A stretch of DNA of 61,961 nucleotides from an uncultured bacterium (GTDB lineage Bacteria > UBA8481), in assembly GCA_964499705.1 (NCBI GenBank), contig CAZCME010000025.1, positions 1 through 61,961 on the forward strand, written 5' to 3'. The notes below the pieces were generated by a model. The model had not been told where the DNA came from, did not search any database, and saw nothing but the letters and a program-made list of their open reading frames with translations. Positions 41,790 to 58,987 of this stretch are shown here, one piece after another (position 1 is the first letter of the stretch; each line of letters starts with the position of its first letter). Both the position numbers and the translations under genes were made by a program.

Positions 41790-41891
41790 GGGACATTCTC
41801 CAACATTCCAACATTCACAACTCAAGACTTGCACCCCGATGGGATCTAACTCCATTATTCTGAATGTTGGAATGTTGGAGAATGTCCCCTA
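41787..41891. repeat. Perfect 31-bp inverted repeat between convergent genes (REP-like, possible bidirectional terminator)
   Basis: taggggacattctccaacattccaacattca (41787-41817) is the exact reverse complement of 41861-41891, with a 43-nt spacer. Confidence 0.9.
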
Positions 41892-42134
41892 ATTCAGCTT
41901 GGCGCGGATCCTGTCTTTGACATCCTGGGGCATGGCTGTCTCCGAATCGAAGGAGGACGAATCCGCGCAGCGGTTCAGCAGGGAGCGAAGGAAGGCGAAT
42001 TCCTTGCGGCAGCGGCGGCAGAATGAGCATGTGATGAGATGTGCGCTCAGCGCGAACTTCTCGGCGAACGTGAGGGGGCGTTCCATCGCGATGGACATGA
42101 GACGTGTCGATTCGCGGCAGGAGAAAATATTCAT
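41889..42134 (-). CDS. Zinc-finger (zf-HC2/ZAS) anti-sigma factor
   Basis: SCRESTRLMS...HLITCSFC (HxxxCxxC); ATGA overlap with the ECF sigma gene. Confidence 0.88.
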   Translation of the reverse strand: MNIFSCRESTRLMSIAMERPLTFAEKFALSAHLITCSFCRRCRKEFAFLRSLLNRCADSSSFDSETAMPQDVKDRIRAKLN

Positions 42135-42727
42135 GCGGCGGCTTTTCCGAACCAGGAGCGTTCGAGACAGCGGCGGAGCTGGAGCCGGGAACGATGAAGC
42201 ATGACCCAGAGGTTCGATTCGGTGATGCCGGCCGCGCGGCAGATTTCCTCGGCGGGCAGGTTGTTCATCTCCCGCATCGTGAAGATCCTGAAGAGACGGT
42301 CGGGCAGCATGCGAAGGCACTCCTGGAGCTGGCGGTGAAATTCGCGCCGCTCGAGGATTTCGCCGGGATCGGCGTCCCAGGATGTATCCGCCTCCGCCAA
42401 GTGACCGTCCTTGCGAAAGAAGTCGTCGACGGAAGTGATCGCCGTGTCCTCCTCCGCGCCGACTTTCTCACGGGCCGTCTTCCGGAAATGATCCGCGATC
42501 TTGTGATTGAGGATTCCCACGAGCCATGTCCTCATGGTGGAAGATCCCGTGAATCGGTCGACGGATCGGAGCGCGGCGAGCAGCGTTTCCTGGACCGCGT
42601 CTTCGGCGTCATGCGCGTTCCGCATGCGGAAGCAGGCGTAGCGATACAGGTAATCGCCATGCTCTTCGAGCCACTTCTCGGCGTCCGCTGTGGAACGGTT
42701 CGCGCGGTATTCGGTTGTCTCCGACAT
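42131..42727 (-). CDS. ECF sigma-70 factor (TIGR02943-like)
   Basis: DAEDAVQETLLAA, TWLVGILNHKIAD, FTMRE...EEIC and NLWVMLHRSRLQLRRCLE. Confidence 0.93.
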   Translation of the reverse strand: MSETTEYRANRSTADAEKWLEEHGDYLYRYACFRMRNAHDAEDAVQETLLAALRSVDRFTGSSTMRTWLVGILNHKIADHFRKTAREKVGAEEDTAITSVDDFFRKDGHLAEADTSWDADPGEILERREFHRQLQECLRMLPDRLFRIFTMREMNNLPAEEICRAAGITESNLWVMLHRSRLQLRRCLERSWFGKAAA

Positions 42728-42777
42728 GCGTCATCGCATCTTATATCTCCGTTATCGACGCTCAACTCTTTTCGTTT

Positions 42778-42804
42778 GTCGCGCGGAGCGTGTGAGTTCT
42801 TACA
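42778..42804 (-). promoter_or_regulatory. Putative ECF promoter of the sigma/anti-sigma operon
   Basis: Minus strand TGTAAG-N17-CGAC(AAACGA); the same motif occurs upstream of msrAB and DUF1223. Confidence 0.65.
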
Positions 42805-42814
42805 ATGGATTTTC

Positions 42815-42840
42815 TGTAAGAACATCCCTCCGAAATGGAC
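42815..42840 (+). promoter_or_regulatory. Putative ECF promoter of the DUF1223 gene
   Basis: TGTAAG-N16-GGAC, 8 nt before ATG 42849, back-to-back with the sigma promoter. Confidence 0.55.
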
Positions 42841-42848
42841 AATTCGCC

Positions 42849-43631
42849 ATGGATACCATGATTCGCATCTCCTTCGCGGGAGCGGTAGTAACGACGTTTT
42901 TCGCGGCCTCGGCCCTGTATGCCTCCTGGAAGAATGAGGCGACGCCGCTGGAATTATCCGGCACCGAGGGCTTCGCGCTCGTGGAGCTCTTCACATCGGA
43001 AGGATGTTCGAGCTGCCCGTCCGCCGATCGCCTGCTCGCGGATCTTGACGCGAAAGCGCGCGACGAGCGCCGGCCGGTGTACGTTCTCTCCTTTCATGTC
43101 GATTACTGGAACCGCCTCGGGTGGCGCGATCCGTACAGCCAGGCGGACTATTCCGCCCGGCAATCCGCTTACGCGTCGAAGTTCGGAAGCTTCGGTGTCT
43201 ACACCCCGCAGATGATCGTGAACGGGAGGACGGAATTCGTCGGCTCGGACCGGGCCCGGGCGGTTCGGGAAATCGATGCCGCCCTGAAGAAACGCGTTCC
43301 GGTTTCCCTCCGGATTACCGCGAAGGAAAGCGCCGCGTCGGGCATTGAGATTCATTACACGGTGACCGGTCTCGAGTTGACGGCGCTCCTGCATGTCGCG
43401 CTTGTCGACGACGAACGCGTGGTGCCCGTGTCGAGCGGCGAGAATGGAGGTCGAACGCTCCGGCATGTCAACGTGGTCCGCGCGTTCAAGACGGTGACGG
43501 TCGACCGGAACGCCACGGGAACGGTCACGATCGAGAGACCGGCCACGGGCCGGGTGCCGGGACGGATCATCGCGTATCTCCAGGACCCGGCCGGATATGA
43601 AATCGAGGCGGCAGCCGCGGCGGAAATCTGA
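42849..43631 (+). CDS. DUF1223 thioredoxin-like exported protein
   Basis: Signal/TM segment, VELFTSEGCSSCPSAD, SFHVDYWNRLGWRDPY, YTPQMIVNG and GENGGRTLRHVNVVR. Confidence 0.9.
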   Translation: MDTMIRISFAGAVVTTFFAASALYASWKNEATPLELSGTEGFALVELFTSEGCSSCPSADRLLADLDAKARDERRPVYVLSFHVDYWNRLGWRDPYSQADYSARQSAYASKFGSFGVYTPQMIVNGRTEFVGSDRARAVREIDAALKKRVPVSLRITAKESAASGIEIHYTVTGLELTALLHVALVDDERVVPVSSGENGGRTLRHVNVVRAFKTVTVDRNATGTVTIERPATGRVPGRIIAYLQDPAGYEIEAAAAAEI

Positions 43632-43712
43632 CCTCCGCGGCCGCTGCCGGATCCCGGGCAAAATGTCTCTTGTCGGCGGACGATCCTGCCGAAGGTTCAT
43701 CTTGTGTGGACC

Positions 43713-44678
43713 ATGAGAAAAGCGCCCATCGTCGCCCTCTTAATCCTGCTGGCCTTTGTCATCGATTCGGAAGTCGGGGCGGAAGCGCCCTATGAGAGTT
43801 TCCCCGCGCCGGATTTCACGAGAGGTGAGCGGGGTGACGTCGGGGAATTTTCCATCGGCATGTACACGCACTTTCGCCGCTTCGATGCTCTCATCAGTGG
43901 ATCGAAGCGCGTCGCGAACACCAGGGATATTCACCACGAACGCTGGATTCCCGCGTTGATCCTCGACTACCGATTTACCGAGCGATTCGCGGTCTCCGTG
44001 AAGGCTCACGGCGCGAGCATCCGCACGAATCTCCTGGATAACGACCTCGTGACGCGCCGCATCAACAATACGACGATTCCAGGAGATGTCTTCGTCTACG
44101 GAATCTGGCATCCCTGGCTGGAAAAGGACCCGAACGCGCCGTATTCCTTCTGGGATCGCCGCAATCTCGGCTTCGTCGCGGGGCCCAAGTTCGATTTCGA
44201 CCGCGAGGATCCGCAGGTCGGCGTGGCGCCGGGAGCGGATTTCCGCCATGGGCCTTTTGGCGCCGGATCCAACGAGGCGCTGGCCGGTTTTGTCTACACC
44301 GGCCATATCAATGACAAGATCTGGCTGTATCATTATTCGCAGTACCTGATTCCGCTCGACAGGAACGTCTTCGGCATGAAGCCGGGCGAGCGCTATGAAT
44401 CTCAACTCCTGGGAATTTCCTACCTGCCCAACGACGTCGTCCAGCTCTTCTGCTCGGTCAACGCCGGCTACGAGTGGAGCGGCAGCGGCGGCCGAATCGC
44501 GAGCGCGCCCGCGAATACGGGCGGGACGAAGGTGTTCCTCAATCCCGGCATCACCGCGGATTTCGCGCATGGCTGGGGCACCGAAATCTCCGTGAATTAT
44601 CCCCTGTACGGAAATCTCCACGGCATCCAGCTCGAAGGGCGCGAGGATCTCTTCTTCGGGTTCTACAAGACGTTCTGA
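43713..44678 (+). CDS. Probable outer-membrane beta-barrel protein (transporter-like)
   Basis: Signal peptide, aromatic amphipathic strands, NTGGTKVFLNPGI and a C-terminal FFGFYKTF ending in Phe. Confidence 0.65.
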   Translation: MRKAPIVALLILLAFVIDSEVGAEAPYESFPAPDFTRGERGDVGEFSIGMYTHFRRFDALISGSKRVANTRDIHHERWIPALILDYRFTERFAVSVKAHGASIRTNLLDNDLVTRRINNTTIPGDVFVYGIWHPWLEKDPNAPYSFWDRRNLGFVAGPKFDFDREDPQVGVAPGADFRHGPFGAGSNEALAGFVYTGHINDKIWLYHYSQYLIPLDRNVFGMKPGERYESQLLGISYLPNDVVQLFCSVNAGYEWSGSGGRIASAPANTGGTKVFLNPGITADFAHGWGTEISVNYPLYGNLHGIQLEGREDLFFGFYKTF

Positions 44679-45946
44679 CGCACCGCGAGCGTCGAGGCGA
44701 TCCACACGGTTACCGTGACGAGCAAAATCCCGGCTGTCCATATTTCCGGCAGCCCCAGCACGAACGTCATGAGGATGATCGCGCCCGCGGCAAAAACGAC
44801 GCCGGCGCGGGTCACGACGCCGTCCAGGAGCAACTTGATCGCACCGAGCCGGTCGGGTTCGACGCGGGCCAGGAGTTTTTCGGCCGCCGCCTCGTGAAGG
44901 GAATCCGACAGACCCTCCTTCATGATCTGGACGATATAGATGACGGCCAGGAGCTTATAGAAGAGAAAGATCGCCGCGCCGAAGAAGAGCGCCAGCGGCA
45001 GAACCAGGAGCGCGGACAGGAGACCGAATTTCCGGATGATGCGCTCCGCGCCGAAGGACAGGACGATCAGCGAAAACGAGTAAAGGTAGATGTAGAAGTT
45101 GGAGAAGAATTCGACGAATCCCGTCGCCGACGATTCTCCCTGTTCGCCGATGATCCAGTAGAAGAAATAGTCCAGGATGACGAGCGAAGCGCCGGCGGCG
45201 AAGAAAAGCGGCGCAAGACGGGCGATTTTCCGGTCCGTCCTGATCCAGTTCCACGATTCGGACCATGTCAGCTTCTTCTTCTCCACGTCCGGAGAAGCGG
45301 CCGTGCCGGCGAGAAACCGGCGTTCCGCCGCGATGACGAGCGGCAGATCCAGGAAGATCGCGCCCGCGATGACGAACATGAAATGATCGCGGATGGATTC
45401 GAAACGTCCGCCCAGTCCGTCCATGAGCAGAGGCGCAGCGGCTCCGGAGAACCAGGATCCGAAGAGGCCTCCCGCCATGATCGACGCCGCGGCGTATCGC
45501 ATGCCCCGTGCCGTGTCGGGCCCGGAAAAAAGATGTCCCACGCGGACGAAGAGATTGGCCCAGAGCAGCACGAAGACGAGCTCGAGCGCGACGAAGTAGA
45601 CAATGTACGTGGATCGGATCGTCTCCAGCCAGAACTCATGCCGCCCCGCGTCCCCGCGCGAGAATTCCTCCGCCTGGAAAAGCTTGTACGTGAGGAAGCG
45701 GAAGCAGGCGAAGAAGAGACCGGCCGCGATCGTCGTCATGATCTGCCATCGCGCGGCGCTCGCCTTCGCCTGCATCCTGACCTGCGTGGCGGCGACCGGC
45801 ACGGTGAGGAATGCGATGGTCATCAAGGGCACCGGGACGAACTGGTAGCCGACGTTGCACGTGAGCGAGCAGTCGCGGATGATGTCGCCCATGCCGTTGG
45901 CCATCCCGAGGAGAAACCCGGAAGCGATGATGAGGAAGATTTCCAC
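44663..45946 (-). CDS. MFS-like membrane protein, Npt/TLC nucleotide-carrier-like (paralogue A)
   Basis: About 12 TM segments; RDCSLTCNVG, DYFFY, FFSNFY and IIRKFGL; clear paralogue at 51175-52446. Confidence 0.7.
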   Translation of the reverse strand: MEIFLIIASGFLLGMANGMGDIIRDCSLTCNVGYQFVPVPLMTIAFLTVPVAATQVRMQAKASAARWQIMTTIAAGLFFACFRFLTYKLFQAEEFSRGDAGRHEFWLETIRSTYIVYFVALELVFVLLWANLFVRVGHLFSGPDTARGMRYAAASIMAGGLFGSWFSGAAAPLLMDGLGGRFESIRDHFMFVIAGAIFLDLPLVIAAERRFLAGTAASPDVEKKKLTWSESWNWIRTDRKIARLAPLFFAAGASLVILDYFFYWIIGEQGESSATGFVEFFSNFYIYLYSFSLIVLSFGAERIIRKFGLLSALLVLPLALFFGAAIFLFYKLLAVIYIVQIMKEGLSDSLHEAAAEKLLARVEPDRLGAIKLLLDGVVTRAGVVFAAGAIILMTFVLGLPEIWTAGILLVTVTVWIASTLAVRQNVL

Positions 45947-45978
45947 GGAGCCCCCATTATCCGCATCGCGGCTTCATG

Positions 45979-46007
45979 TTGCAATCTCGATGACCGGCAT
46001 TTAGGAT
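45979..46007 (+). promoter_or_regulatory. Sigma70-like promoter of the Zn-finger/CpaF/cyclase operon
   Basis: TTGCAA-N17-TAGGAT, followed by a GGAGGTG RBS and ATG 46026. Confidence 0.6.
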
Positions 46008-46025
46008 GAGCGGACTGGAGGTGTC

Positions 46026-46298
46026 ATGTCAGAACTTTACGCCAGCCTGCGTGGTTGGAAGCCCGATGAACCCGGCGATGTCATCTGTCCGCTCTGCGAA
46101 CGGAAGTTCAGCCGGCTCGGCTATAAGTTGCATCTCGTCTTCGACAAGGGGCAACTTCAGCAGATCAAGAAGGATCATCCGGACTGGACGGACGAGGACG
46201 GAGCCTGTTTCCCCTGCATCAACCTCTATCGCTCCGAATTCAAGCTCCCGCCCCTCTCGCGCGACGAAATGCTGCCGCTCGTGCGGTTGACGAAGTAA
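46026..46298 (+). CDS. Small CxxC...CxxC putative zinc-binding protein
   Basis: Strong RBS; CPLC and IKKDHPDWTDEDGACFPC. Confidence 0.75.
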   Translation: MSELYASLRGWKPDEPGDVICPLCERKFSRLGYKLHLVFDKGQLQQIKKDHPDWTDEDGACFPCINLYRSEFKLPPLSRDEMLPLVRLTK

Positions 46299-46301
46299 AC
46301 C

Positions 46302-47621
46302 ATGGCCTGGAAACGCGGCGACCAGGATCTGAAGACTCCGGAGATCGAAGATCTCCTCGAAGCCATCATCGCCGAAGCGGGACAGAAGCTCGATCTCGTG
46401 AAGATCGATCCGGAGGCGGTCAAGCAGTCCGAGGCGTCCGTCCGCGACGTGTTGAAGGCCGCCACGGAAAAGGCTTCCGCGATGCTCGGCATGACGGGCT
46501 CCATCATCGATCGTGACCGGGTGATCGATCATGTCCTTCGCGAGCTCGCGGGCTTCGGCCCGATCACATCGTTTCTCGCCGAGAAGACCATCACGGAGAT
46601 CATGGCCAACGGGCCGGGTCGGATTATCGTGGAGCGAAACGGCGTCATGGAAGAGACGCGCCGGAAATTCCATTCCAACGAGCATCTCCTTCATATCATC
46701 CGCCTGATGTCCTCCGGAATCGGCCGCGGGATCGACGAGGACAATCCCTTCGTCGACGCGCGCCTGCCGGACGGCTCGCGCCTCCATGCGATCATCCCGC
46801 CCCTGGCGGCGGACGGACCCGCTCTGACGATCCGCAAATTCTCCCGGTCCGCGTCGTCCATGGCCGACTTGGTCAAGAACGGCGCCGTTCCGGAAGAAGT
46901 CGCGGGATTCCTGCACGCCTGCGTGAAGGGGAGGCTCAACATCCTGGTCTCCGGCGGAACGAACACCGGCAAGACCACGATGCTGAACGCGCTCGCGGAA
47001 GCGATTCCCGATACGGAGCGGGTCATCACGATCGAGGATGCCTGCGAGCTGCAGTTCAAGAAGAGAAACCTGGTGCGTCTGGAGACGAAGCCGCCGGACA
47101 TGAACGGCAAGGGGGAGATCCCGACGCGCATTCTCGTCAGAAACGCCCTCCGCATGCGGCCCGACCGGATCGTCGTCGGAGAAGTCCGCGGCGCCGAGAG
47201 CTTCGACATGCTCCAGGCCATGAACACCGGCCACAGCGGCTCCATGACGACGGTCCACGCCAACACCGCCCGCGACGCGCTCGCGCGCGTGGAGACGACG
47301 GCGCTCCTGGCCGACGTCGGCCTGCCGCTCGTGGCGATCCGCCGCCAGATGTCGTCCGCGATTCATCTCATCGTTCATCTCGAACGACAATCGGACGGGG
47401 CGAGGCGGCTTGCGAAAATGACGGAGGTGATCGGCACCGAAGGCGATGTGATCACGACGCAGGATCTCTTCGAGATGAAGGCGGAAAAATCCGGGAAGGA
47501 CGGATCGGTCACAATGACTTTGCGCGCGACCGGACTCGTTCCGAAGTTCGACCGCATCCTCGACGAGCGCGGCATCAAGGTGCCGCGGAGAATCTTCGAA
47601 CAGTCCGTCGGCAAAGGGTAG
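46302..47621 (+). CDS. cpaF: CpaF/TadA family secretion ATPase
   Basis: EIMANG, VDARLPDGSR, LTIRKF, SGGTNTGKTT, TIEDACEL, LRMRPDRIVVGEVRG and AMNTGHSGSMTTVHAN. Confidence 0.93.
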   Translation: MAWKRGDQDLKTPEIEDLLEAIIAEAGQKLDLVKIDPEAVKQSEASVRDVLKAATEKASAMLGMTGSIIDRDRVIDHVLRELAGFGPITSFLAEKTITEIMANGPGRIIVERNGVMEETRRKFHSNEHLLHIIRLMSSGIGRGIDEDNPFVDARLPDGSRLHAIIPPLAADGPALTIRKFSRSASSMADLVKNGAVPEEVAGFLHACVKGRLNILVSGGTNTGKTTMLNALAEAIPDTERVITIEDACELQFKKRNLVRLETKPPDMNGKGEIPTRILVRNALRMRPDRIVVGEVRGAESFDMLQAMNTGHSGSMTTVHANTARDALARVETTALLADVGLPLVAIRRQMSSAIHLIVHLERQSDGARRLAKMTEVIGTEGDVITTQDLFEMKAEKSGKDGSVTMTLRATGLVPKFDRILDERGIKVPRRIFEQSVGKG

Positions 47622-48965
47622 TTGGCTCCTACGACCCAGGGGATGGCGGAACGCTTCCAGGCGCTCGAACAATACCCTGAGCTGGATCGGGAGCTCCTGG
47701 ATCGTCTGCGTGCCTGGATCGAGTCGGCTCCCGATCCCGCGCTCTTTCGCGTCAATCTCGTCCCCTGGAGCGCGGAATGGGATGTGCCGCTCTCCAAGGC
47801 GATCCTGCACTTTCTGCATCTGACGCGGCATGGCGTGATGGAGCTCTCCCTCGATGTCCACTGTCCGCATTGCAACGTCGTCCTGAACCGAGCCTCCACG
47901 CTGAAGGCGGCTCAATCGCGCCACTACTGCCAGTACTGCCTGAAGGATGTCGAATCGAAGTTCGACGACAATTTCGAAGTGACGTTCACGATCAGCGGCA
48001 GTCTCCGGACTGTGAAGGGATACGTCGGCTATGAGCCGTCGTCGAACGTCGAGATCTATCTCCGGTCGAAGGTGGAGCCTGGTGCGACGACGGAGCTGCG
48101 CGTCGAACCTCCCGCGCATGCGCGCCTCCTGCGGCTCGTTTCGTGGCCGCCCGTCCACGTGCATGTCGCTCCGGTCGAACCCGCGGGTCCGAAGGACCAG
48201 GATCTCATCCTGCCGGATGAACTGCCGGAGGGCATCACCGGCGTCGCGGAAGGAACGTTCACGCTCAGGGTGAGAAACACGAGCCGTGTCGCCCGGAGCT
48301 TGATGATCGAGAACCACGAGATGAGGGAGTACGAGCCGCACGAGGTGAAACCCCGTCTTTCGGGCCTCCAGGTCGCGATACATCCCGCGTTCGAGAAACT
48401 TTTCGGAGGCGACACGCTGTCGGAGCGGGAGTCACTCCGGATCCGCGACATCACCGCCGCTTTCACCGACATCCAGGGGTCCACGGCCTTCTATGAGAAA
48501 TGGGGGGACGTGCGCGCCTACAATATCGTGCGCGATCACTTCGAGATTCTCTTCGCGGAGATCGAGAGCCGAGACGGCGTGGTCGTCAAGACGATGGGGG
48601 ACGCCGTGATGGCGGCTTTCATCCATGCGAGCGACGCGGTTGGAGCGCTCCTTGCCATTCAAGGCGCCATGATGCGCTTCAACAGGGACAGGAAGATGGA
48701 GGACGGCATCTTCATCAAGTCGGGACTCCATCGCGGCAGCGCGATTCTTGTCAGCCTGAACGGCCGGAACGATTATTTCGGAACGACGATCAACGAGACG
48801 TCGAGGATCCAGAAATTATCTGAAGCCAACAAGATTGTTATGTCGGACCCGGTGTATCAATCAGCAGGCGTGAAAAACATCCTCGAACAAGCCCGGGTGG
48901 AATCTTTCGAGACGCGACTGGCCGGGCTGGAAAAGAAATACACGCTTCATCGCGTCAGCGCGTAA
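47622..48965 (+). CDS. Class III adenylate/guanylate cyclase with N-terminal DUF5939-like region
   Basis: N-terminal CPHC/CQYC and EVTFTI; catalytic FTDIQGST, KTMGDAVM and NDYFGTTINETSR. The start is TTG 47622 or ATG 47643. Confidence 0.9.
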   Translation: MAPTTQGMAERFQALEQYPELDRELLDRLRAWIESAPDPALFRVNLVPWSAEWDVPLSKAILHFLHLTRHGVMELSLDVHCPHCNVVLNRASTLKAAQSRHYCQYCLKDVESKFDDNFEVTFTISGSLRTVKGYVGYEPSSNVEIYLRSKVEPGATTELRVEPPAHARLLRLVSWPPVHVHVAPVEPAGPKDQDLILPDELPEGITGVAEGTFTLRVRNTSRVARSLMIENHEMREYEPHEVKPRLSGLQVAIHPAFEKLFGGDTLSERESLRIRDITAAFTDIQGSTAFYEKWGDVRAYNIVRDHFEILFAEIESRDGVVVKTMGDAVMAAFIHASDAVGALLAIQGAMMRFNRDRKMEDGIFIKSGLHRGSAILVSLNGRNDYFGTTINETSRIQKLSEANKIVMSDPVYQSAGVKNILEQARVESFETRLAGLEKKYTLHRVSA

Positions 48966-49896
48966 ACCTCCGGCAGAAGTTCCAGAGCTCCACGTTGGCG
49001 TCGATGACATTCGTATAGGGACCCATGATGAATTCCGGCAGCTTCGGTTTCTGACCGGGCCATCCATGCCCGGCGCCGGTGAGCCTGATGAGGACGACTT
49101 CGCTTCCGTTCCGGCCGCCCGTCCAGGTGATGCGCTGCGCCGTGTGGGGCTTGGCGCGGCGGGAGGAACGCCACGTGATGATCGTTCCGATTTTCGGATT
49201 TCGAGAACAACCGTTCTGCCTGACCCACCAGGCCATCAATTCGTCCACATTGGCATGGTAGGATGCATCGGTGGCGCCGATCAGATATTTCGGTCCGTAC
49301 CCACCGTTGTAGGCGGCACGCGGATCGTCGACGCTGTGGATATGGAGAACGGGAACGGAACGGGAAGGCGTGACGGTCGTATCGAGCGAGGCGCCGCAAA
49401 CTTCCACCACCGCGGCCACGAGGTCGGATGCCTCCCGGGCCAGCCGGTCGCACATCATGGCTCCGTTCGAATGGCCGCACGCATAGACGCGCTTCCGATC
49501 GATCGATGTGCGTGACGCGAGATCGTCGATGATCGCTCGCGTGAATCCGACATCGTCGGCATTGTTGACCATGGCGTAACCGCAGCAGGTCCGGGCGTTC
49601 CATGTGAGGATCTTCCTGCGCCTCCGGCCCGTTCCTGCGGGATAAACGACGATGAAGCCTTCACTGTCGGCGAGAGCATCGAGCCTGTAATCCTTCTGCA
49701 TCTCATCCGGAGTTCCGCCTCCGCCGTGAAAGGCCAGGAGGACGGGCAGCGGCTTGCCGTGGGATGCCTGCGGGGGAAGATGAACGAGGTAATACCGTTC
49801 CGCGGAACCGATCCGGATATCGAATTCGTGGTTGCCTGTTGCCAGGGGAGAAGCGGCGATGAGCGCATGCCACTGGAGAAGAAGGAGCATCAACAT
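48955..49896 (-). CDS. Exported alpha/beta hydrolase, PHB depolymerase/LpqC-like esterase
   Basis: AFHGGGG, VVYPAG, WNARTCCG, DDVGF, nucleophile GHSNG and GAGHGWPG. Confidence 0.9.
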   Translation of the reverse strand: MLMLLLLQWHALIAASPLATGNHEFDIRIGSAERYYLVHLPPQASHGKPLPVLLAFHGGGGTPDEMQKDYRLDALADSEGFIVVYPAGTGRRRRKILTWNARTCCGYAMVNNADDVGFTRAIIDDLASRTSIDRKRVYACGHSNGAMMCDRLAREASDLVAAVVEVCGASLDTTVTPSRSVPVLHIHSVDDPRAAYNGGYGPKYLIGATDASYHANVDELMAWWVRQNGCSRNPKIGTIITWRSSRRAKPHTAQRITWTGGRNGSEVVLIRLTGAGHGWPGQKPKLPEFIMGPYTNVIDANVELWNFCRRFTR

Positions 49897-49950
49897 GGCG
49901 TCAGATTAGCGAAGGAAGAACGCCTTCGCAATCCCACTGTCGCATGCGTG

Positions 49951-51027
49951 TTATTCGAATGTAAGCGCCGCTGAATTGATGCAGTACCGCAGGCCGGTCG
50001 GTCGGGGACCGTCGTCGAAGACGTGGCCGAGATGAGCGGAGCAACGGCTGCAGCGGACCTCCGCGCGCGTCATGCCGTGGCTTTTATCCGTGATGCTCTC
50101 GAGCGCGGACCGATCCACCGGCATCCAGAAGCTCGGCCATCCGGTACCGGATTCGAACTTCGCCGTGGAGACGAAGAGTTCCTGTCCGCACCCGGCGCAG
50201 GAGAAAGCCCCGATATCGTGATGATCCCAGTATTTTCCGGTGAAGGCGCGTTCCGTGCCGGCCTTGCGAATGACCTTGAATTGCTGGGGTGTCAGAATCG
50301 CCTGCCATTCCTTTTCCGTGACGCTCTGCCAGTATTCGCGCGTCTCGTCGGCTCCCGGAGGAACCATGCTCGTATCGGCGTCTCTCGATGGCGCATGGCA
50401 TGATCCTCCGCCCGATTTTTCGTAGTACTGCTGATGATAGTCCTCGGCTGGATAAAACATTCCCTCTGCCTGGATCTGGGTCCCGACTTTGTCCGTGCCG
50501 AGTCGCGCGGCCCGCCGCGCTCCTTCTCTCAAGCGAGATAATCGCGCCACCACAGCCTGCTTCGGGGTTGTCGTGAAGATGACCGAGCGGTACTGGCTCC
50601 GCGTGTCCTCCTCGGCCGGCGGCGTGTGGCTCGACCAGAAAACCTGCAGCAGACGGTCGTAGGAGACGCGCGACGGATCGTACGTCACCTCGACGACCTC
50701 GGCGTGGCCGGTCACATGCGAGCAGACATCTTCGTACGTGGGATTCATGCGCGTGCCTCCGGAATACCCGGCGCGCGTGGAGACGACGCCGTCGATCGAC
50801 CGGAACAGTGCCTCCACGCCCCAGAAGCATCCCGCTCCGAAGACGGCTTTCTCCGTTACGGCCGTCGGGGTTTCACGCGGCGAGCCGGCCGGTTTCACCG
50901 CGGTGGAAGTGAGCGCGGGGCCGGTCTGGCCGGAGCGGGCTAGGGAGAGGGCGGGTCGGAAAGCGGCGAACAGGATCCCCGCCGTTGCGAGAACGGAGGC
51001 TAACAGAATGAGCTGAGCATGATTCAT
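49951..51027 (-). CDS. msrAB: Exported bifunctional methionine sulfoxide reductase MsrA-MsrB
   Basis: N-terminal signal/TM; MsrA motifs GAGCFWG, GHAE and FYPAEDYHQQY; MsrB motifs GTERAF, GWPSF, HLGHVFDDGP and RYCINS. Confidence 0.96.
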   Translation of the reverse strand: MNHAQLILLASVLATAGILFAAFRPALSLARSGQTGPALTSTAVKPAGSPRETPTAVTEKAVFGAGCFWGVEALFRSIDGVVSTRAGYSGGTRMNPTYEDVCSHVTGHAEVVEVTYDPSRVSYDRLLQVFWSSHTPPAEEDTRSQYRSVIFTTTPKQAVVARLSRLREGARRAARLGTDKVGTQIQAEGMFYPAEDYHQQYYEKSGGGSCHAPSRDADTSMVPPGADETREYWQSVTEKEWQAILTPQQFKVIRKAGTERAFTGKYWDHHDIGAFSCAGCGQELFVSTAKFESGTGWPSFWMPVDRSALESITDKSHGMTRAEVRCSRCSAHLGHVFDDGPRPTGLRYCINSAALTFE

Positions 51028-51057
51028 GGAGTTCTCCTTTCAGATGTGTATCGTTCT

Positions 51058-51083
51058 GTCGCGACGCACAAAGCTATCTTACA
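51058..51083 (-). promoter_or_regulatory. Putative ECF promoter of msrAB
   Basis: Minus strand TGTAAG-N16-CGAC(AGAACGA), followed by an AAGGAG RBS and ATG 51027. Confidence 0.7.
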
Positions 51084-51174
51084 ACTTTGCCGTTGTTAAT
51101 TCTGAAAGACCGCCCTTCTCCGTGATTCCGGCTCGCCCGATTCGGGCACGTCAGCTAGAATGAGGAAACGCCCG

Positions 51175-52446
51175 ATGAACAACCGCAGCCGCCTTGGATT
51201 CGCCCTCGCTCCTGCGCTACTGCTCGGCCTCACTTACGGATTGGGCCAGATCGTCCGGGATTGTTCCCTGACGTGCAACGTCGGCTTTCGCCTTTCGCCG
51301 ATCGTATTCCTCCTGATCTCGCTCCTCTCCTTCGGAGTCGTCTCCCTCCAGATCCGCATCGTTTCCCGATTCGACGCCAGCTGCTGGTGGATCGGATGCG
51401 CGGGCGGCGGCGCCCTGCTCATTCTCGTGTTTCGCGGTCTGACATTTCTTCTTCTATCCGGTGATCCTTCAACGGGGAAGGAGGCGCTGCAGGCCGTCTA
51501 TATCGGATTCTATGTCGTCCTGGAGCTGCTCTTCGCTCTGCTCTGGAACAACCTCTTCGGATTCGTGAGGAGGCTCTTTCCGGACGAGGTTAAGGGTGGA
51601 CGCATGTTCGGTTATGTCTCCGCTTGCGTTCTTGTCGGCAGCCTGGCCGGCGCCTGGCTGGGAGGCGAGCTTGCGCCGATTCTGATGAGGTCTTTCCCCG
51701 ATCGATTCGAGCAGATCCGGGATCATCTCATGTTCGCCATGGCCGCGAGCCTGCTTCTGTCGATCCCGATCCTCGCCGCCGGCGCGCGCGCTTCCGGGGC
51801 GAAGACCGCGGGCCCCGGGACGAAAATCGAGGAGTCTTTCGGGCTGGGCACCGCGTGGTCGTGGGTGAAATCCGACTCGCGGATGAAGCGCATGGCCTGG
51901 ATTTATCTTCTCACCGGAAGCTCCGCGATCTTCATGGATTACATCTTCTACTGGGTCATCAGCCAGCAGGCGGAAGGTGGCAGCGTCGGGCTCGTCGGAT
52001 TCTTCTCGAACTTCTACATCTATTTGAGCGGCATGACCCTTTTGCTTCTCCTGTTCGGAGCAGGGCGGTTGTCGCGCCGGTTCGGAGACACGGCCGGTCT
52101 CTTGATTTTGCCTGCAGTGCTCTTGCTGGGAACCGGCGGACTCCTCGCGTTCGTGAACCTTCGCCTTTTGTCCGGAATCAGGATCATGGAGAAGAGCCTG
52201 AAGAAATCGATCTACGAGCCATCGACGGAGTCCCTGTTTCAACAGCTCGATCCCGAGCGCTATTCGGTGCTGCGCCCGGTGCTCGACGGCTTCTCCAAGA
52301 GAATAGGGGAGGCCGCCATTTCGATCGCCCTCCTGGGTTTCCTTCTGTTCCCGGATCTGCCGATCCGAGCGGCTCTCGGCCTGCTGCTCTTCATCCAGGC
52401 TGCATGGCTCATCGCCGTGCTTTCACATCGACGTTCGGCGCGCTGA
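51175..52446 (+). CDS. MFS-like membrane protein, Npt/TLC nucleotide-carrier-like (paralogue B)
   Basis: Shares RDCSLTCNVG, RFEQIRDHLMF, DYIFYW and FFSNFYIYL with 44663-45946. The start is 51160 or 51175. Confidence 0.7.
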   Translation: MNNRSRLGFALAPALLLGLTYGLGQIVRDCSLTCNVGFRLSPIVFLLISLLSFGVVSLQIRIVSRFDASCWWIGCAGGGALLILVFRGLTFLLLSGDPSTGKEALQAVYIGFYVVLELLFALLWNNLFGFVRRLFPDEVKGGRMFGYVSACVLVGSLAGAWLGGELAPILMRSFPDRFEQIRDHLMFAMAASLLLSIPILAAGARASGAKTAGPGTKIEESFGLGTAWSWVKSDSRMKRMAWIYLLTGSSAIFMDYIFYWVISQQAEGGSVGLVGFFSNFYIYLSGMTLLLLLFGAGRLSRRFGDTAGLLILPAVLLLGTGGLLAFVNLRLLSGIRIMEKSLKKSIYEPSTESLFQQLDPERYSVLRPVLDGFSKRIGEAAISIALLGFLLFPDLPIRAALGLLLFIQAAWLIAVLSHRRSAR

Positions 52447-52506
52447 TCTGATCCGCTTAGGCGGAGACTGTTAAATCGAAGCGCTCGATTTCCTGCTTAA
52501 TTCCGA

Positions 52507-53094
52507 TCAGCCCCCGATCAAAGGAAGAAGGGGAGTATTGATGGTGGTGACGCTTCCCGGGTTGACCTGAAGCCATCGGTAGTTCGGATCGTTCACCGTG
52601 GTCGGCTGGTAGCTCTGCCATCGACCAACGGAATCCATCGTGCGAAACCATGTGGTGACGATGAGGTCTCCAATATCTTCTCTCGCGGTGCCGTAGGGCA
52701 GGTAGATTCCGACTTCCGGATTGCCTTCCCAAAGTCCGTTTATTCCCTGCGGCGCCTGGACCATGGCATGTCCGAGGACTTCGCTGGTCACCTTGTTGTG
52801 GACGCTGATGATGAAGGCGATCTGCAGAACCGTGTCGTGGATGGCTTCCAACCTGTACGGCAGGGTCAATGTCACGTCATAGGGCCGGATATTGCCCGTC
52901 GCGCCCGCTCCGATCGCGGAGAGTTGAACCACCTCGATCAGGGATAACTGCACGTTATATTCGACCGCGGTCGGCTGGATCATCGCCGTCGTCACCTGGG
53001 ACACAACCATGTTCATGGGGGACGCCTCCGCCTTCAAAGGTGTCGCCAACAGTGCCAGTACAACGAGGAAAGGTGCGATGAGAATATTTTTCAT
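52507..53094 (-). CDS. Secreted hypothetical protein (beta-rich)
   Basis: AAGGAG RBS and signal peptide MKNILIAPFLVVLALLATPLKA. Confidence 0.7.
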   Translation of the reverse strand: MKNILIAPFLVVLALLATPLKAEASPMNMVVSQVTTAMIQPTAVEYNVQLSLIEVVQLSAIGAGATGNIRPYDVTLTLPYRLEAIHDTVLQIAFIISVHNKVTSEVLGHAMVQAPQGINGLWEGNPEVGIYLPYGTAREDIGDLIVTTWFRTMDSVGRWQSYQPTTVNDPNYRWLQVNPGSVTTINTPLLPLIGG

Positions 53095-53141
53095 GTTCGT
53101 TCTCCTTGAGGAAATGGAATGAATGTCGACGGATGTCATGA

Positions 53142-54050
53142 CTATTGCCCTCGCGTTCCGAAGCCGCTGATCCTCGGGATTGTCACGCGGACCGGTTGGA
53201 ACGGTCCGGCATTGACGATCAGCGAGAAGTTGGGCAGTTCCATGATCTGAGCTGCACCGCAGGCGGAACAATTGCCGGCGACGAGTCGAACTCCATACGC
53301 GGCCCGAGCGGAATTGTTCTGCGCATTGAAGGTGACAACGCGGCTCGTGTTGGAACCGGATACGACTCCCAGCGTCACGAAGACGTCACCCTGCTGCTGT
53401 CCCGTTGCGGTGTCGTAAAGAAAAGCGCTCGTGAGGTTGTGGAGATTCGTGCCCTGAAGGATCACTTCAACATAGGGACTGGTTATCGGCGTGAGAGCGG
53501 CGCTCGACATCAGGGCGCCGCCCGATGTCGTGACATGGGTGATCGTCGGCCTCGCCGCCGCCGCTTCCAATTCCGCGGCCGCCGCTGCCGCCGCTGCCGC
53601 TGCCGCCACCGCCGCCGCCGTTGCCTCCGCGGTATTGGTCGATGGCGCGGAGACGGTGATGGTGAAGCCAGGAATCGTCTGCTCCTGGGTTCCGTTGAAG
53701 AATCGGACCACAAGTCCCGTGGCGGCCGGTGACTGGTCGGAGACTCTGAAAGAGCAGAGGCGTGAGTTGATCGTGGCCGTGGACGCAGGCTGGATCATGA
53801 CGCTGATGTCGGCTCGCCTTGCGAAGGAGACGGGATCATAGACAAAGACATCTCCGAGTTCATTGAGATTTGACCCCTGCAGATAGACTCCGGCCTGGGA
53901 ACGGGTCTGATCGAGCGGTGCAAGCTCGATGAGCGAGGTTGGGCCGGTTCCGTCATCCTTCGCCACAATAGTGATCATCGGTTCGGCGTGTACAGCCGCT
54001 ACCGCGAGCATGACAGCGCTCCATGCCATTAAACATCGATTCATCTTCAT
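53142..54050 (-). CDS. Secreted protein with two internally duplicated Ig/IPT-like domains and a poly-Ala linker
   Basis: GGAGGAG RBS and signal peptide; VYLQGSNLNELGDVFVYD versus VILQGTNLHNLTSAFLYD; Ala run encoded at about 53550-53630. Confidence 0.75.
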   Translation of the reverse strand: MKMNRCLMAWSAVMLAVAAVHAEPMITIVAKDDGTGPTSLIELAPLDQTRSQAGVYLQGSNLNELGDVFVYDPVSFARRADISVMIQPASTATINSRLCSFRVSDQSPAATGLVVRFFNGTQEQTIPGFTITVSAPSTNTAEATAAAVAAAAAAAAAAAELEAAAARPTITHVTTSGGALMSSAALTPITSPYVEVILQGTNLHNLTSAFLYDTATGQQQGDVFVTLGVVSGSNTSRVVTFNAQNNSARAAYGVRLVAGNCSACGAAQIMELPNFSLIVNAGPFQPVRVTIPRISGFGTRGQ

Positions 54051-54087
54051 AGACTCCTCCTGAGCTTGACCGTGCTGTTGATGATTC

Positions 54088-54113
54088 ATCGTAGATCGTA
54101 AGCAAACCTTACG
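54088..54113 (-). promoter_or_regulatory. Possible ECF promoter of the 54050/53094 secreted-protein genes
   Basis: Minus strand CGTAAG-N16-CGAT, directly after the terminator U-tract; a weaker match to the TGTAAG-N16/17-CGAC motif. Confidence 0.4.
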
Positions 54114-54114
54114 C

Positions 54115-54147
54115 AAAAAAAAAGGGACCCCGCCGCGCGGGGTCCCT
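54115..54147 (-). terminator. Intrinsic terminator downstream of the Met-rich gene
   Basis: GC-rich stem gggaccccgc/gcggggtccc with a 3-nt loop and nine U on the minus strand, 17 nt after the stop codon. Confidence 0.9.
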
Positions 54148-54163
54148 CCGATACTCTCGAAGC

Positions 54164-54979
54164 TCAGCGATACGCCGTCATCGACTTCATCTTCATCTTG
54201 CCGGTCATCATCGACATCCCGTCCATCATCTTCGACATGTCCATCATCATCTTGCCCATGTCGCCGGCCATCATGCCGCCCATCTTGCCCATCATCATGG
54301 ACATCATCTTCATCTGGTTCATCATGCCGGTCTTCATGTCGCCGCTCATCATCATGGCGCCCATGTTCCCGTGCATCATCTTCGACATGTCCATCATCAT
54401 CTTGTTCATGTCGGTCATCATCGGCATCATGTCGCCGGTCATGCCCATGCCCATCATCTTCATGCCGTGCATGTTCATCATCATCTTCGACATGTCGCCC
54501 ATCATCATGCCCATCTTCGCCATCATCATCTTCGCCATGTCATCGGACATCATCATCGACATGTCGGACATCTCGTTCATCTTCCCCATGTCCATCATCA
54601 TCTTGGACATCTTCCCCATCATCATCGACATGTCGCCCATCGACATGGAGCCCATGGGCATCTCGCCCATTGTCATCATGCCCATGTCGCCCATCATCTT
54701 CGACATGTCCATCATCATCTTCCCCGACCCCATCGGCATGGCCATGCCCATGTCGCCCATCATCTTCGACATGTTCATCATCATGTCGGCCATGTTCATC
54801 ATGGACATCTTATCCATGTTCATGCTCATCTTCGACATGTCCATGTTCATCTTGGACATGTCGCCCATCATATCCATGGGCATGTTGCCCATCATCTCCT
54901 CGGCGGCGACGTTCGGCGCAAAGCCGCACATCAAGGCCAGCGCGATCGTCGGGATCGCGCGTCGGGTACAGTAACTCAT
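54164..54979 (-). CDS. Secreted methionine-rich repeat protein
   Basis: AGGAGG RBS, signal peptide and its own terminator. About 114 Met in the 243 residues after the leader (hand count), arranged in DMSKMMM-type heptads. Confidence 0.85.
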   Translation of the reverse strand: MSYCTRRAIPTIALALMCGFAPNVAAEEMMGNMPMDMMGDMSKMNMDMSKMSMNMDKMSMMNMADMMMNMSKMMGDMGMAMPMGSGKMMMDMSKMMGDMGMMTMGEMPMGSMSMGDMSMMMGKMSKMMMDMGKMNEMSDMSMMMSDDMAKMMMAKMGMMMGDMSKMMMNMHGMKMMGMGMTGDMMPMMTDMNKMMMDMSKMMHGNMGAMMMSGDMKTGMMNQMKMMSMMMGKMGGMMAGDMGKMMMDMSKMMDGMSMMTGKMKMKSMTAYR

Positions 54980-55005
54980 AACTACCTCCTGTGATTTATA
55001 TTACA

Positions 55006-55042
55006 GCCGCTTCAATTTAGCGGCGGACTTCAGCCGGATCAA
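55006..55042 (-). promoter_or_regulatory. Possible sigma70 promoter of the Met-rich gene with overlapping dyad
   Basis: Minus strand TTGATC-N17-TAAATT; the inverted repeat gccgct-N7-agcggc (55006-55024) brackets the -10. Confidence 0.4.
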
Positions 55043-55084: not shown

Positions 55085-56059
55085 TTAAGGGGTTGCCTTA
55101 GGGCATTGGACCAGATTCTTTAAAAGGGCGCGAAAGGCCGTCATCGGAACTTCGCGCCGGTTGAACCGGAAGACGAATTCGTCCAGGTACTGCTGGAGAT
55201 ATCTCGGGGTGACGCCTCGATGTGTTACCAGGAGCCAGGATTTCAGTTCTCCGAAGGCCTTATGGATATGCGGGAAGCGCGTCGCGGCCTCGTGCGGCGA
55301 CCCGACGGCCCGGATGCGATGCCGGTACAGGGTCAGGATCTTCGGGGAAAGACTCAGTCGCCCGTTCGTCCGGATTTTCGATCCCGCTTCGACGTTTCCC
55401 ATCAGGAAGGCCTCCAGCGTCGACGCTCTCTGATCCGGTATCACGGCAAGTTTCAGGCGTCCCGGCGCCTCACGGCGCCGGCCGCGCGCATCGCGACGCG
55501 TGACGACCTCCACCGCTCCGACAACCAGGTCGCCTCCTCCGGCTCCCGGCGCACGGCTTCCTGCGCGAGCTTCCTCGTGGAGCAGCGTCACGTAGACGCG
55601 GACGGTTCCGGTCAGCTTCTCCAGCGACTCCGTGACCATGTTGCTTCGGAGACGGCGCAGGAGGTTCCAGGCGCTCCTGTAATTCGCCAGGTCCAGCTCT
55701 TTCTGCAGTTGAAGCGCGCTGATGCCCGGGAGCCGTGTCGCCACAAGATACGCCGCCAGGAACCAGCTCTCGATCGGAACGTGCGAACGGTGCATGGCCG
55801 TGCCGGCTGTCGGTGAAACCTGGGTTCGGCATGCACGACACTGATAAGCCGGTCGCGTTCGGAGTAGTGCCGCTGACCGGCTTTGGCACCGGGGACAGAC
55901 GAACCCGTGCGGCCATCTCAATGTCGCGACATATTCCAGACACGTCGGGGCGGATGAAAACTTGCGGCGAAACGCGGCGAAGTCCGCGGTTCTATCCGGC
56001 TGCATTTTCGCGGAGCGGCTTCGAGAGTTCGGAAATAAGTCAGGAGCCTGCTTTTTCAT
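55085..56059 (-). mobile_element. IS1595-family (ISXO2-like) transposase homologue with substituted catalytic residues
   Basis: LRWPHGFVCPRC...YQCRAC...TAGT zinc ribbon, ISALQLQKEL and YLDEFVFRFNRR. No terminal inverted repeats recognised. Confidence 0.85.
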
Positions 56060-56184
56060 GAAATGCCTTTCCACGCAATTGAACGTGGAAAAGAGTCGGA
56101 CTCATCGTCACGAGCTTACAAAGAAAAGCTCCGCTGGATCCCTATGAGATTCGGTTCCCCCCCCCGGAGCTGCAGACGGCACTC

Positions 56185-58740: not shown

Positions 58741-58808
58741 TCATGAAGTGATACACGCGGAAGCGGGGAATGGCGGGCCGGCAAAATACAAGACCAAATA
58801 CAAATATA

Positions 58809-58980
58809 GTCCCGCCGCTGCCGTGGTGCGTTTCATTTATGGACCCTGTAGAGACAGGTGGGCGCCCCAGGCCGGTTCAGCTTACCTTCCCGGAGGAAAG
58901 CGTCGCGTTCCCGCCATATCAGGCTCCCGTCCAAAAAAATGTTGGGTCAAAAAATCAACGCTCCGCGCACAGCGCAGGAC
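58809..58980 (-). ncRNA. ssrS: 6S RNA
   Basis: 172-nt rod with pairs GTCCTGC/GCGGGAC, GCTGT/GCAGC, GCGTT/AACGC, GACCC/GGGTC and GGGAGCC/GGCGCCC. It has a central bubble AACATTTTTTT and the 6S-like CACCTG...CAGGGTCCA...CGGCA segment. Confidence 0.85.
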
Positions 58981-58987
58981 CACATCC

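Follow-up and report, generated by a model that had tools for sequence, protein, structure and literature searches.

A predicted ECF sigma factor switch with msrAB and DUF1223 as candidate targets in an uncultured bacterium of the lineage UBA8481

We analysed 61,961 nucleotides (nt) of DNA from an uncultured bacterium of the GTDB lineage UBA8481 (assembly GCA_964499705.1, contig CAZCME010000025.1, positions 1 to 61,961), which we call the window. It contains an operon encoding a sigma factor of the extracytoplasmic function (ECF) type and its anti-sigma factor, a divergently oriented gene of the DUF1223 family, a gene (msrAB) for a fused methionine sulfoxide reductase and one for a secreted protein that is very rich in methionine (Met). 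An initial annotation of the same DNA proposed that a shared promoter motif joins several of these genes in a regulon. The identities it gave (ECF sigma factor, zf-HC2 anti-sigma factor, DUF1223 protein with a CSSC motif, and MsrA-MsrB with a hydrophobic N-terminus) agree with Pfam and NCBIfam.

The sigma operon, msrAB and the DUF1223 gene

The sigma factor gene (42131..42727, minus strand) encodes 198 amino acids, in which Pfam recognizes only the Sigma70_r2 and r4_2 domains, and the product scores 174.6 bits with the NCBIfam model TIGR02943 (cutoff 162.2). The next gene on this strand (41889..42134) encodes an 81-amino-acid anti-sigma factor of the soluble zinc-associated anti-sigma (ZAS) type, with a zf-HC2 domain (C6, H32, C36 and C39) and a score of 55.6 bits with the NCBIfam model NF052368 “antisigmaE” (cutoff 50). 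Its start overlaps the sigma stop codon, and the two genes are translationally coupled. The spacing of its metal ligands, Cys-x25-His-x3-Cys-x2-Cys, is that of MseR (Cys4/His30/Cys34/Cys37) and RsrA (Cys11/His37/Cys41/Cys44-type spacing), as these are described in PMC2893595. The RsrA model itself gives 18 bits on the window protein, with a cutoff of 62.5. The closest homologues of the sigma factor are metagenomic sequences with 75% and 71% identity, and the remainder have at most 54%. The family is called “ECF group 13” in PMC7907618, and ECF13 was merged into ECF293 in PMC7826278.

The MsrA-MsrB fusion (49951..51027, minus strand) has 358 amino acids and matches PMSR and SelR in Pfam as well as the msrA and msrB domains of NCBIfam. 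Both catalytic domains are intact. An 18-residue hydrophobic stretch at its N-terminus is followed by a linker rich in Pro, Thr and Ala, and the protein is likely to be exported or to be anchored facing outward, by means of a signal peptide or a membrane anchor. The downstream gene (48955..49896, minus strand) encodes a secreted alpha/beta-hydrolase that resembles polyhydroxybutyrate (PHB) depolymerases (Pfam Esterase_PHB). We found no terminator between the two genes and one after the esterase gene, at 48955-48940. Possibly, msrAB and the esterase gene form one operon.

The DUF1223 gene (42849..43631, plus strand) encodes 260 amino acids with an N-terminal signal sequence and a CSSC motif (Pfam PF06764, E-value 5e-56). 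Atu2684 (PDB 2AXO), a structural-genomics entry that was deposited as a hypothetical protein, belongs to the same Pfam family, shares the CxxC motif and matches the window protein with an E-value of 6e-26. C53 and C56 are invariant across 42 DUF1223 sequences. A profile of these 42 members aligned their ELFTSxGCxxCP motif and a TP...NG loop (cis-Pro-type) with the archaeal thioredoxins 1FO5 and 1NHO. As judged from its sequence, then, the DUF1223 product is an exported thioredoxin-fold protein with a CxxC motif. The family has more than 7,700 matches.

Directly after DUF1223 lies a gene for a secreted protein of 324 amino acids (43704..44678, plus strand) with no Pfam or NCBIfam family. No terminator-like site was found in the 72-nt gap between the two genes, and they may be co-transcribed. 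The protein ends in ...YKTF, and solely on account of this C-terminal Phe one might guess that it is an outer-membrane barrel.

The promoter motif in the window and around homologous sigma genes

The pattern TGTAAG-N16/17-SGAC matches the window four times, where 0.13 matches are expected, and none of 100 shuffled windows gives four. The match before the sigma operon (42778-42804, minus strand; TGTAAG-N17-CGAC, that is, TGTAAGAAC-N-CGACAAAC) has an exact core, lies 50 nt upstream of the sigma ATG (42727) and is predicted to be an autoregulatory promoter for the sigma and anti-sigma genes. The core of the predicted sigma-dependent msrAB promoter (51058-51083, minus strand; TGTAAG-N16-CGAC, TGTAAGATA-N-CGACAGAA) is also exact. 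It lies 30 nt upstream of the msrAB ATG (51027), with the Shine-Dalgarno sequence GGAG in between. These two sites share downstream bases (cgcgacaaacga / cgcgacagaacga), as the initial annotation had stated, and we regard both as solid.

The predicted promoter of DUF1223 (42815-42840, plus strand; TGTAAG-N16-GGAC, TGTAAGAAC-N-GGACAAT) is divergent from that of the sigma operon and has the same complete 9-nt −35 box. Only 8 nt separate the end of its −10 box from the DUF1223 ATG (42849), and there is no Shine-Dalgarno sequence; the DUF1223 mRNA is therefore probably leaderless. Such a transcript fits the situation in Neisseria, where transcription starts about 10-11 nt past the −10 box according to PMC2893595 and PMC3240639. 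The −35 boxes of the sigma and DUF1223 sites (42796-42804 and 42815-42823) form a perfect 9-nt inverted repeat, consisting of GTTCTTACA, 10 nt and TGTAAGAAC.

Two further sites occur on the minus strand. A candidate weaker promoter (54088-54113; CGTAAG-N16-CGAT, cGTAAGGTTT-N-CGAtGAAT) lies 37 nt upstream of the ATG (54050) of a gene for a secreted 302-amino-acid protein. The initial annotation had listed the three sites above and this weaker copy, and we located all four, each facing its gene; the target of the msrAB site is the minus-strand reading frame at 49951-51027, not its plus-strand neighbour. A fourth exact match to the core, absent from that annotation, lies 20-35 nt upstream of a transposase gene of the IS1595 family (56095-56120; TGTAAG-N16-CGAC, TGTAAGCTC-N-CGACTCTT).

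The initial annotation took the motif to be the promoter of the sigma factor and proposed a scan of relatives. A search with an alignment of 30 sigma homologues yielded 80 loci (43-52% identity, 1.118 Mb) in the genomes of species representatives that span many phyla. TGTAAG-N16/17-CGAC occurs 116 times around these 80 homologous sigma genes, compared with 0-7 times for six permuted patterns. Of these sites, 105 have a 16-nt spacer and 11 a 17-nt spacer; any other spacer length is found 0-4 times, and patterns with one of the ten core bases substituted yield no more than 16 matches. The consensus with flanking bases is yTGTAAGGwTyy...CGACyAAy. At least one site is present in 64 of the 80 loci. 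The interval from −400 to +1300 relative to the sigma start makes up 12% of the bases and contains 75 of the 116 sites. These counts support the prediction that the motif is a real promoter specific to this family of sigma factors. The anti-sigma gene is kept in 60 loci. Ten of the sites are promoters of divergent targets and lie no more than 400 nt upstream of the sigma match.

Genes for Msr proteins are present in three of the 80 loci, and in two of them an exact site lies in front. The target in locus L056 is an MsrB exported by the twin-arginine (Tat) pathway, followed by MsrA; in locus L079 it is an MsrB-MsrA fusion with a hydrophobic N-terminus, encoded divergently from its sigma gene. 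The msrB gene in the third locus (L011) has no sensible site at up to two mismatches. Together with the cases of Neisseria and Haemophilus, these data support msrAB as a recurrent target of this sigma family, and the Tat signal in L056 and the hydrophobic N-terminus in L079 point to export, as in the window. No recognizable gene for an electron donor adjoins the motif-linked msr genes of these two loci. In a Pfam analysis of 107 open reading frames (ORFs) downstream of family sites, other predicted targets were DoxX, AhpC/redoxin, pyridine-nucleotide disulfide oxidoreductases and DedA/VTT proteins, as well as DM13, DUF547, aquaporins and subtilases. The predicted target set can be described as redox-flavoured.

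We built a position weight matrix (PWM) on 63 non-coding family sites and the substitution counts. The best match in the window is the site of the sigma operon (42804, minus strand; score 20.2), followed by the weak site (54113, minus; 18.0), the msrAB site (51083, minus; 15.8), the DUF1223 site (42815, plus; 14.2) and the site at the transposase gene (56120, minus; 12.7). The next match scores 10.0. All five top matches are intergenic, face a gene and are confined to 42.8-56.1 kb. Ten shuffled windows gave a mean of 1.2 matches of at least 12, with maxima of up to 17.4, so single scores are weak evidence; what gives the result its strength is that five sites within 13 kb are all intergenic and correctly oriented. 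The weak site exceeds the maxima of all ten shuffled windows, and its flanking bases agree well with the family consensus. Its −10 box, CGAT, is seen once in the family, versus 116 times for CGAC, such that the final T is almost without precedent. Its role as a promoter is uncertain. The fourth site has a perfect core and poor flanks, with a C following TGTAAG, as in only one of 105 family sites.

Some observations on the family sites concern other genes. Twenty-two of the 116 sites fall within the sigma ORF itself, towards its 3′ end (about +440 to +480), 45-95 nt before the anti-sigma start. They are exact matches to TGTAAG-N16-CGAC and occur in L006, L018, L022, L024, L026, L041, L042, L047, L053, L059, L063, L071 and others. 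Their codons read C-K-x-L-x-I-T, and the window sigma gene does not have this site. They could be either a by-product of conserved codons or internal sigma-dependent promoters for feedback transcription of the anti-sigma gene. In eight loci of Pyrinomonadaceae/Acidobacteriota (L001, L004, L009, L011, L014, L051, L061 and L066), a site precedes a gene for a subtilase with CBM48, and in most of these a site is also found before a channel gene of the MIP family about 2 kb further on. A link to methionine repair is not obvious for these genes. L051 also has back-to-back sites at 1922 (minus) and 1950 (plus).

Genomic settings of DUF1223 and of the Met-rich protein

A tblastn search of plasmid and chromid records gave 42 records with DUF1223, and we read 18 proteobacterial loci, 13 of which were annotated. 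As a search pattern we used the site of Caulobacter sigmaF, an ECF16 sigma factor, which is GTAACC-N16-CGAA according to PMC3511200. An exact TGTAAC-N16/17-CGAA occurs about 40-170 nt from the estimated DUF1223 start in seven of the 18 loci, and a site with at most one mismatch in eight. With permuted control motifs, exact matches were absent, and an average of 0.35 loci matched when one mismatch was allowed. An exact site of this kind stands before an operon in L084 whose last gene is DUF1223.

We scored neighbouring genes within 3-4 kb of DUF1223. Genes for an ECF sigma factor with NrsF/DUF1109 are close by in L082, L084 and L085. Genes for DsbD, CcdA or thioredoxin are found in L081, L085 and L095, and genes for DsbA, DsbB or thioredoxin in L087 and L088. 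Copper genes occur in L082, L086, L087 and L089. On a Bradyrhizobium plasmid (L083), an MXKDX Met-rich repeat protein (4745-5011, plus strand) is encoded 124 nt after DUF1223. On a Rhizobium rhizogenes plasmid (L097), genes for cytochrome b and a molybdopterin-binding protein, which resemble MsrQP, and a Met-rich ORF of 101 amino acids (715-2669, minus strand) are divergent from DUF1223. L090 and L092 have nothing relevant close to DUF1223. Genes for an alpha/beta-hydrolase, lysophospholipase or PHB depolymerase lie less than 4 kb from DUF1223 in L082, L084 and L086, which may be a coincidence.

DUF1223 is thus repeatedly predicted as a target of another, unrelated ECF family, which is associated with oxidative or metal stress. 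With this association, its placement under the window sigma factor becomes credible, and the DUF1223 family acquires a functional setting. Full-text searching for “DUF1223” returned nothing on bacterial stress regulation, and the main text of PMC7826278 does not mention DUF1223. The regulatory context is therefore new for the family.

The Met-rich protein (54164..54979, minus strand) is secreted, as indicated by its signal sequence, and has 116 Met among its 271 amino acids, in keeping with the Met-rich protein near msrAB that the initial annotation had reported. About 245 predicted mature residues include 114 Met (47%), and the rest are chiefly G, K, D and S, with 2 His and no Cys in the mature part. 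The sequence has a 7-residue periodicity. A strong Shine-Dalgarno sequence in front of the ORF and a strong 13-bp terminator behind it (54121-54149) argue that it is a real gene. The protein has no Pfam or NCBIfam match. In a HMMER-based homologue search the composition filter suppressed every match, including that of the query to itself, and so these results do not speak for or against homology; matches in the Atlas are at the 0.8 level only, to unnamed clusters. Its composition would be equally compatible with an oxidant sink and with a binder of Cu(I) or Ag(I).

The transposase gene (55085..56074, minus strand) is co-oriented with the Met-rich gene and directly 5′ of it. According to Pfam and NCBIfam, it encodes an IS1595-family protein with a DDE domain and an N-terminal zinc ribbon. 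A repeat search found no terminal inverted repeats of IS1595, and local alignment of the flanks scored 14, with a mean of 17 for shuffled flanks. We had considered that the Met-rich gene might have been separated from an ECF promoter by the insertion of an IS1595 element, and dropped this idea because the terminal inverted repeats were not found. Visual inspection showed short hairpins near the two ends of the transposase gene (about 56070-56094 and 55005-55027, minus strand), whose loops are alike and of the TTCAATT type.

The weak site precedes genes for two secreted proteins without a Pfam or NCBIfam family. The first (53142..54050, minus strand; 302 amino acids, no family above threshold) has a signal peptide and appears by eye to consist of two similar halves with a poly-Ala joint and a CSAC motif in the second half. 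The second (52507..53094, minus strand; 195 amino acids) is encoded downstream of it.

Other genes lie among these. Two paralogous membrane proteins of 427 and 428 amino acids (44663-45946, minus strand; 51160-52446, plus strand) are TLC/MFS (Npt-like) transporters. They are 36% identical and have a conserved N-terminal segment, RDCSLTCNVG; one is a neighbour of the DUF1223 unit, and the other is oriented divergently from msrAB. We considered them as electron conduits and rejected this role, as they resemble TLC/MFS nucleotide transporters. A gene for a CpaF-like secretion ATPase (46302-47621, plus strand), with no other pilus or secretion genes nearby according to Pfam, is directly followed by a gene for a DUF5939-adenylate/guanylate cyclase (47622-48965, plus strand). 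A 6S (SsrS) RNA (58805-58983, minus strand; RF00013, 67 bits) is the only Rfam match in the window.

The predicted switch, its extent and its meaning

It is probable that the locus encodes an ECF switch of the type represented by Neisseria sigmaE-MseR and Haemophilus RpoE2-HrsE, and that this switch serves the sigma operon, msrAB and DUF1223, and less surely other genes. The family models, the Cys/His spacing, the correspondence to the Neisseria promoter and the msrAB targets place the window among members of this known type of switch: the sigma model and the anti-sigma layout are those of the type, as is the promoter, and a site lies at msrAB. The window does not resemble the ECF16 system SigF/NrsF, because its anti-sigma factor is a soluble zf-HC2 protein, not a six-helix DUF1109 protein, and its sites are TGTAAG...CGAC, not GTAACC-N16-CGAA.

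In N. meningitidis and N. gonorrhoeae, sigmaE (Ecf, NMB2144) is paired with MseR, a small cytoplasmic ZAS anti-sigma factor with identical Cys/His spacing, and shows autoregulation. It uses a GTAAG −35 element and a CGxC −10 element at a matching distance, and it has msrAB as a target. We drew this likeness from the family models and the published spacing and consensus. There are also differences. The MsrAB protein of Neisseria has a thioredoxin-like N-terminal domain, whereas that of the window does not. The Neisseria sigma gene is the fifth in the six-gene operon NMB2140-NMB2145, while here it is the first of two genes; the −10 box is CGTC in Neisseria and CGAC here; and the divergent DUF1223 target is a feature of the window. 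Unlike Neisseria, the window organism is not a proteobacterial pathogen, and the nearest relatives of its sigma factor are metagenomic, with at most 75% identity. The Neisseria promoter has the −35 sequence GTAAGGTT / GTMAGBWTT and the −10 sequence CGTCTAA / CGTCTAAH, 12-13 nt apart (PMC2893595), which corresponds to GTAAG-N15/16-CGTC and agrees with the window motif. Deletion of mseR raised msrA/msrB expression 80-fold (PMC3240639). That an ECF sigma factor with a zinc anti-sigma factor controls msrAB in Neisseria, a point on which the initial annotation had relied, is borne out by PMC2893595 and PMC3240639.

H. influenzae RpoE2/HrsE likewise has a ZAS anti-sigma factor that is co-transcribed with the sigma factor. 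RpoE2 directly activates msrAB and the system is induced by hypochlorous acid (HOCl), with MsrAB placed in the periplasm (PMC7907618). It differs in having a DMT-type transporter as the neighbouring target and in its weak autoregulation; DUF1223 and a Met-rich protein are absent, and no promoter consensus is given in that paper. Streptomyces coelicolor SigR/RsrA has a cytoplasmic redox-sensing ZAS anti-sigma factor with the same type of spacing (PMC2893595). However, it belongs to another ECF group, uses another promoter and serves a cytoplasmic thiol response.

A different parallel is offered by Azospira suillum, in which SigF/NrsF drives yedY1Z1-mrpX, and by Brucella melitensis, in which BcrS/AbcS drives bcrXQP (PMC4436054, PMC8315932). 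These systems also combine an ECF sigma factor, a periplasmic Met sulfoxide reductase and a secreted Met-rich scavenger. However, their sigma factors are of the ECF16 group with the six-helix membrane anti-sigma factor NrsF/DUF1109, and their reductase is the molybdoenzyme MsrPQ, as opposed to the thiol-based MsrAB here. The Met-rich protein of the window is secreted, of low complexity and Met-rich, like the MrpX/MXKDX scavengers. Yet BcrX is an MXKDX pentapeptide repeat protein (PMC8315932), whereas the window protein, with its 114 mature Met, has period 7, not 5. Also unlike mrpX and bcrX, its gene is not part of an ECF-driven reductase operon but lies separately, 3 kb from msrAB and behind a transposase gene.

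Several results weigh against the proposed switch or its extent. Only four of the 80 loci have an exact same-strand site in the 400 nt upstream of the sigma match, so proximal autoregulation is not the norm in the family. No DUF1223 gene lies near any of the 80 homologous sigma genes, and the GGAC −10 box of the DUF1223 site is rare (2 in the family, against 116 for CGAC); one of the two cases, in L063, is also oriented divergently from its sigma gene, and its extended −10 box is good. The nearest relative of the DUF1223 protein (63% identity) and the nearest sigma relatives (75% and 71%) are encoded on contigs that differ in length, and conserved synteny is therefore not established. The inclusion of DUF1223 in such a regulon, as initially annotated, gains independent support from the sigmaF-type sites and the neighbours of DUF1223 on proteobacterial replicons. 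There is no gene for DsbD, CcdA or thioredoxin in the window that could reduce DUF1223, and the idea that DUF1223 donates electrons to MsrAB is purely conjectural. Finally, the N-terminus of MsrAB has no positively charged n-region and has two Arg after the hydrophobic segment, so that its outward-facing topology is tentative.

The position of the Met-rich protein is the main point on which readings of the locus diverge. Its tie to the regulon is circumstantial, and consists of its proximity to msrAB and DUF1223, the association of DUF1223, Msr and Met-rich proteins elsewhere and the fourth site. There is close to an even chance that the sigma circuit holds for the sigma operon, DUF1223 and msrAB only, with the fourth and weak sites arising by chance and the Met-rich protein being an independent neighbour, perhaps carried by IS1595. 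Consistent with this, a PWM scan found no motif in the 105-nt gap upstream of the Met-rich gene, which the initial annotation had already described as lacking one. In addition, the score of the fourth site (12.7) lies within the range of the shuffled windows, its flanks are poor, and the −10 box of the weak site is nearly unique. No ORF of comparable Met density is near the 80 sigma homologues, where only L037 passed the Met threshold, with a weaker Gly/Met-rich stretch (12 Met in 40 residues) about 6 kb from its sigma gene. On the other hand, a core matching at 10 of 10 positions is expected only about 0.1 times per window, and the fourth site is intergenic, correctly oriented and a short distance from a start codon. 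The stretch between the transposase gene and the Met-rich gene contains neither a terminator nor a sigma70-like promoter that we could find, and the fourth site could drive a transcript of both. Moreover, Met-rich peptides adjoin DUF1223 and Msr genes in L083 and L097, and ECF control of Met-rich peptides is established in Azospira and Brucella (PMC4436054, PMC8315932). The peptides of L083 and L097 are much smaller than the window protein, with 9 Met among some 60 mature residues in the former and about 19 Met in the latter.

The stress to which the switch responds could also be viewed differently. If the signal were envelope metal stress from Cu(I) or Ag(I), instead of or besides reactive chlorine or oxygen species, the Met-rich protein would be a metal sponge, DUF1223 would keep thiols or copper sites reduced and MsrAB would guard Met metal sites. 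The neighbours of DUF1223 elsewhere fit this idea, as they include genes for CopD (L082 and L086), a multicopper oxidase (L087) and SCO/PCuAC (L089), while the operon that DUF1223 ends in L084 contains a DUF692 gene and a DNA-binding-domain gene and lies beside DUF2282 and DoxX. Caulobacter sigmaF responds to chromium and cadmium, and not to peroxides (PMC3511200), and periplasmic repair by MsrPQ has been linked to copper stress and CusF (PMC9302797). However, no cop, cus, pco, multicopper oxidase or metal efflux genes were found in the 62-kb window, the Met-rich protein has few His and no mature Cys, and those relatives of this sigma/anti-sigma type that have been characterised respond to oxidants and have msrAB under their control (PMC7907618, PMC2893595). 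We consider metal stress unlikely. Even more remote is the possibility that the back-to-back TGTAAGAAC boxes are not two −35 elements but an operator made of two half-sites for a dimeric repressor. The perfect inverted repeat and its 10-nt spacer would suit an operator, but the same half-site occurs at msrAB with the same CGAC spacing and without a palindrome, it occurs 116 times near homologous sigma genes with a strict spacer of 16 or 17 nt to CGAC, and divergent back-to-back sites are also seen in L051.

Under the preferred reading, an ECF switch of the Neisseria/Haemophilus type, HOCl, peroxide or disulfide stress would oxidise the zinc-thiolate site that the anti-sigma factor carries and free the sigma factor, which would then amplify its own operon. 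The freed sigma factor would transcribe msrAB, probably with the downstream gene for the secreted esterase, and DUF1223, probably as a leaderless mRNA and perhaps together with the gene for the 324-amino-acid protein. Exported or anchored MsrAB would repair oxidised Met in envelope proteins. DUF1223 would most likely be a periplasmic thiol-disulfide reductant, with MsrAB as one candidate client. Less certain members of the regulon would be the two-gene operon behind the weak site and the transposase and Met-rich gene pair behind the fourth site. If the Met-rich protein belongs to the regulon, it might be a sacrificial oxidant scavenger that is recycled by MsrAB, analogous to MrpX with MsrP.

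The path from the sigma factor to msrAB is a circuit known from Neisseria and Haemophilus, here in a new lineage. What is new is DUF1223 as a target, with its wider association with ECF sigma factors, and the extreme Met-rich neighbour. A more far-reaching proposal, which we consider doubtful as a whole, is that the locus is a thiol-based counterpart of the MsrPQ-MrpX hypochlorite cycle, in which a ZAS/ECF pair co-induces exported MsrAB, DUF1223 as a dedicated reductant and, by read-through, a sacrificial protein with 114 Met, and that DUF1223 takes part widely in ECF-controlled repair. If this were true, DUF1223 would stand in for the fused thioredoxin domain or the Etrx-type partners used elsewhere, and the Met-rich protein would contain about ten times as much Met as the known MrpX-type peptides, with read-through starting from the site before the transposase gene. 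DUF1223 would then be a previously unrecognized part of ECF-controlled envelope methionine and thiol repair that was independently recruited by sigma factors of the sigmaE and sigmaF types.

Homologous sigma genes from many phyla are surrounded by the same promoter code, TGTAAGG-N15-CGAC(y)AA, and its conservation makes the regulons of this family predictable from sequence. DUF1223, a family with a structure but so far no function, gains a concrete setting among ECF sigma factors for oxidative or metal stress, DsbD/CcdA, Msr proteins and Met-rich peptides. The secreted protein with 47% Met is an extreme case of what may be scaled-up sacrificial buffers or Cu(I) thioether sponges.

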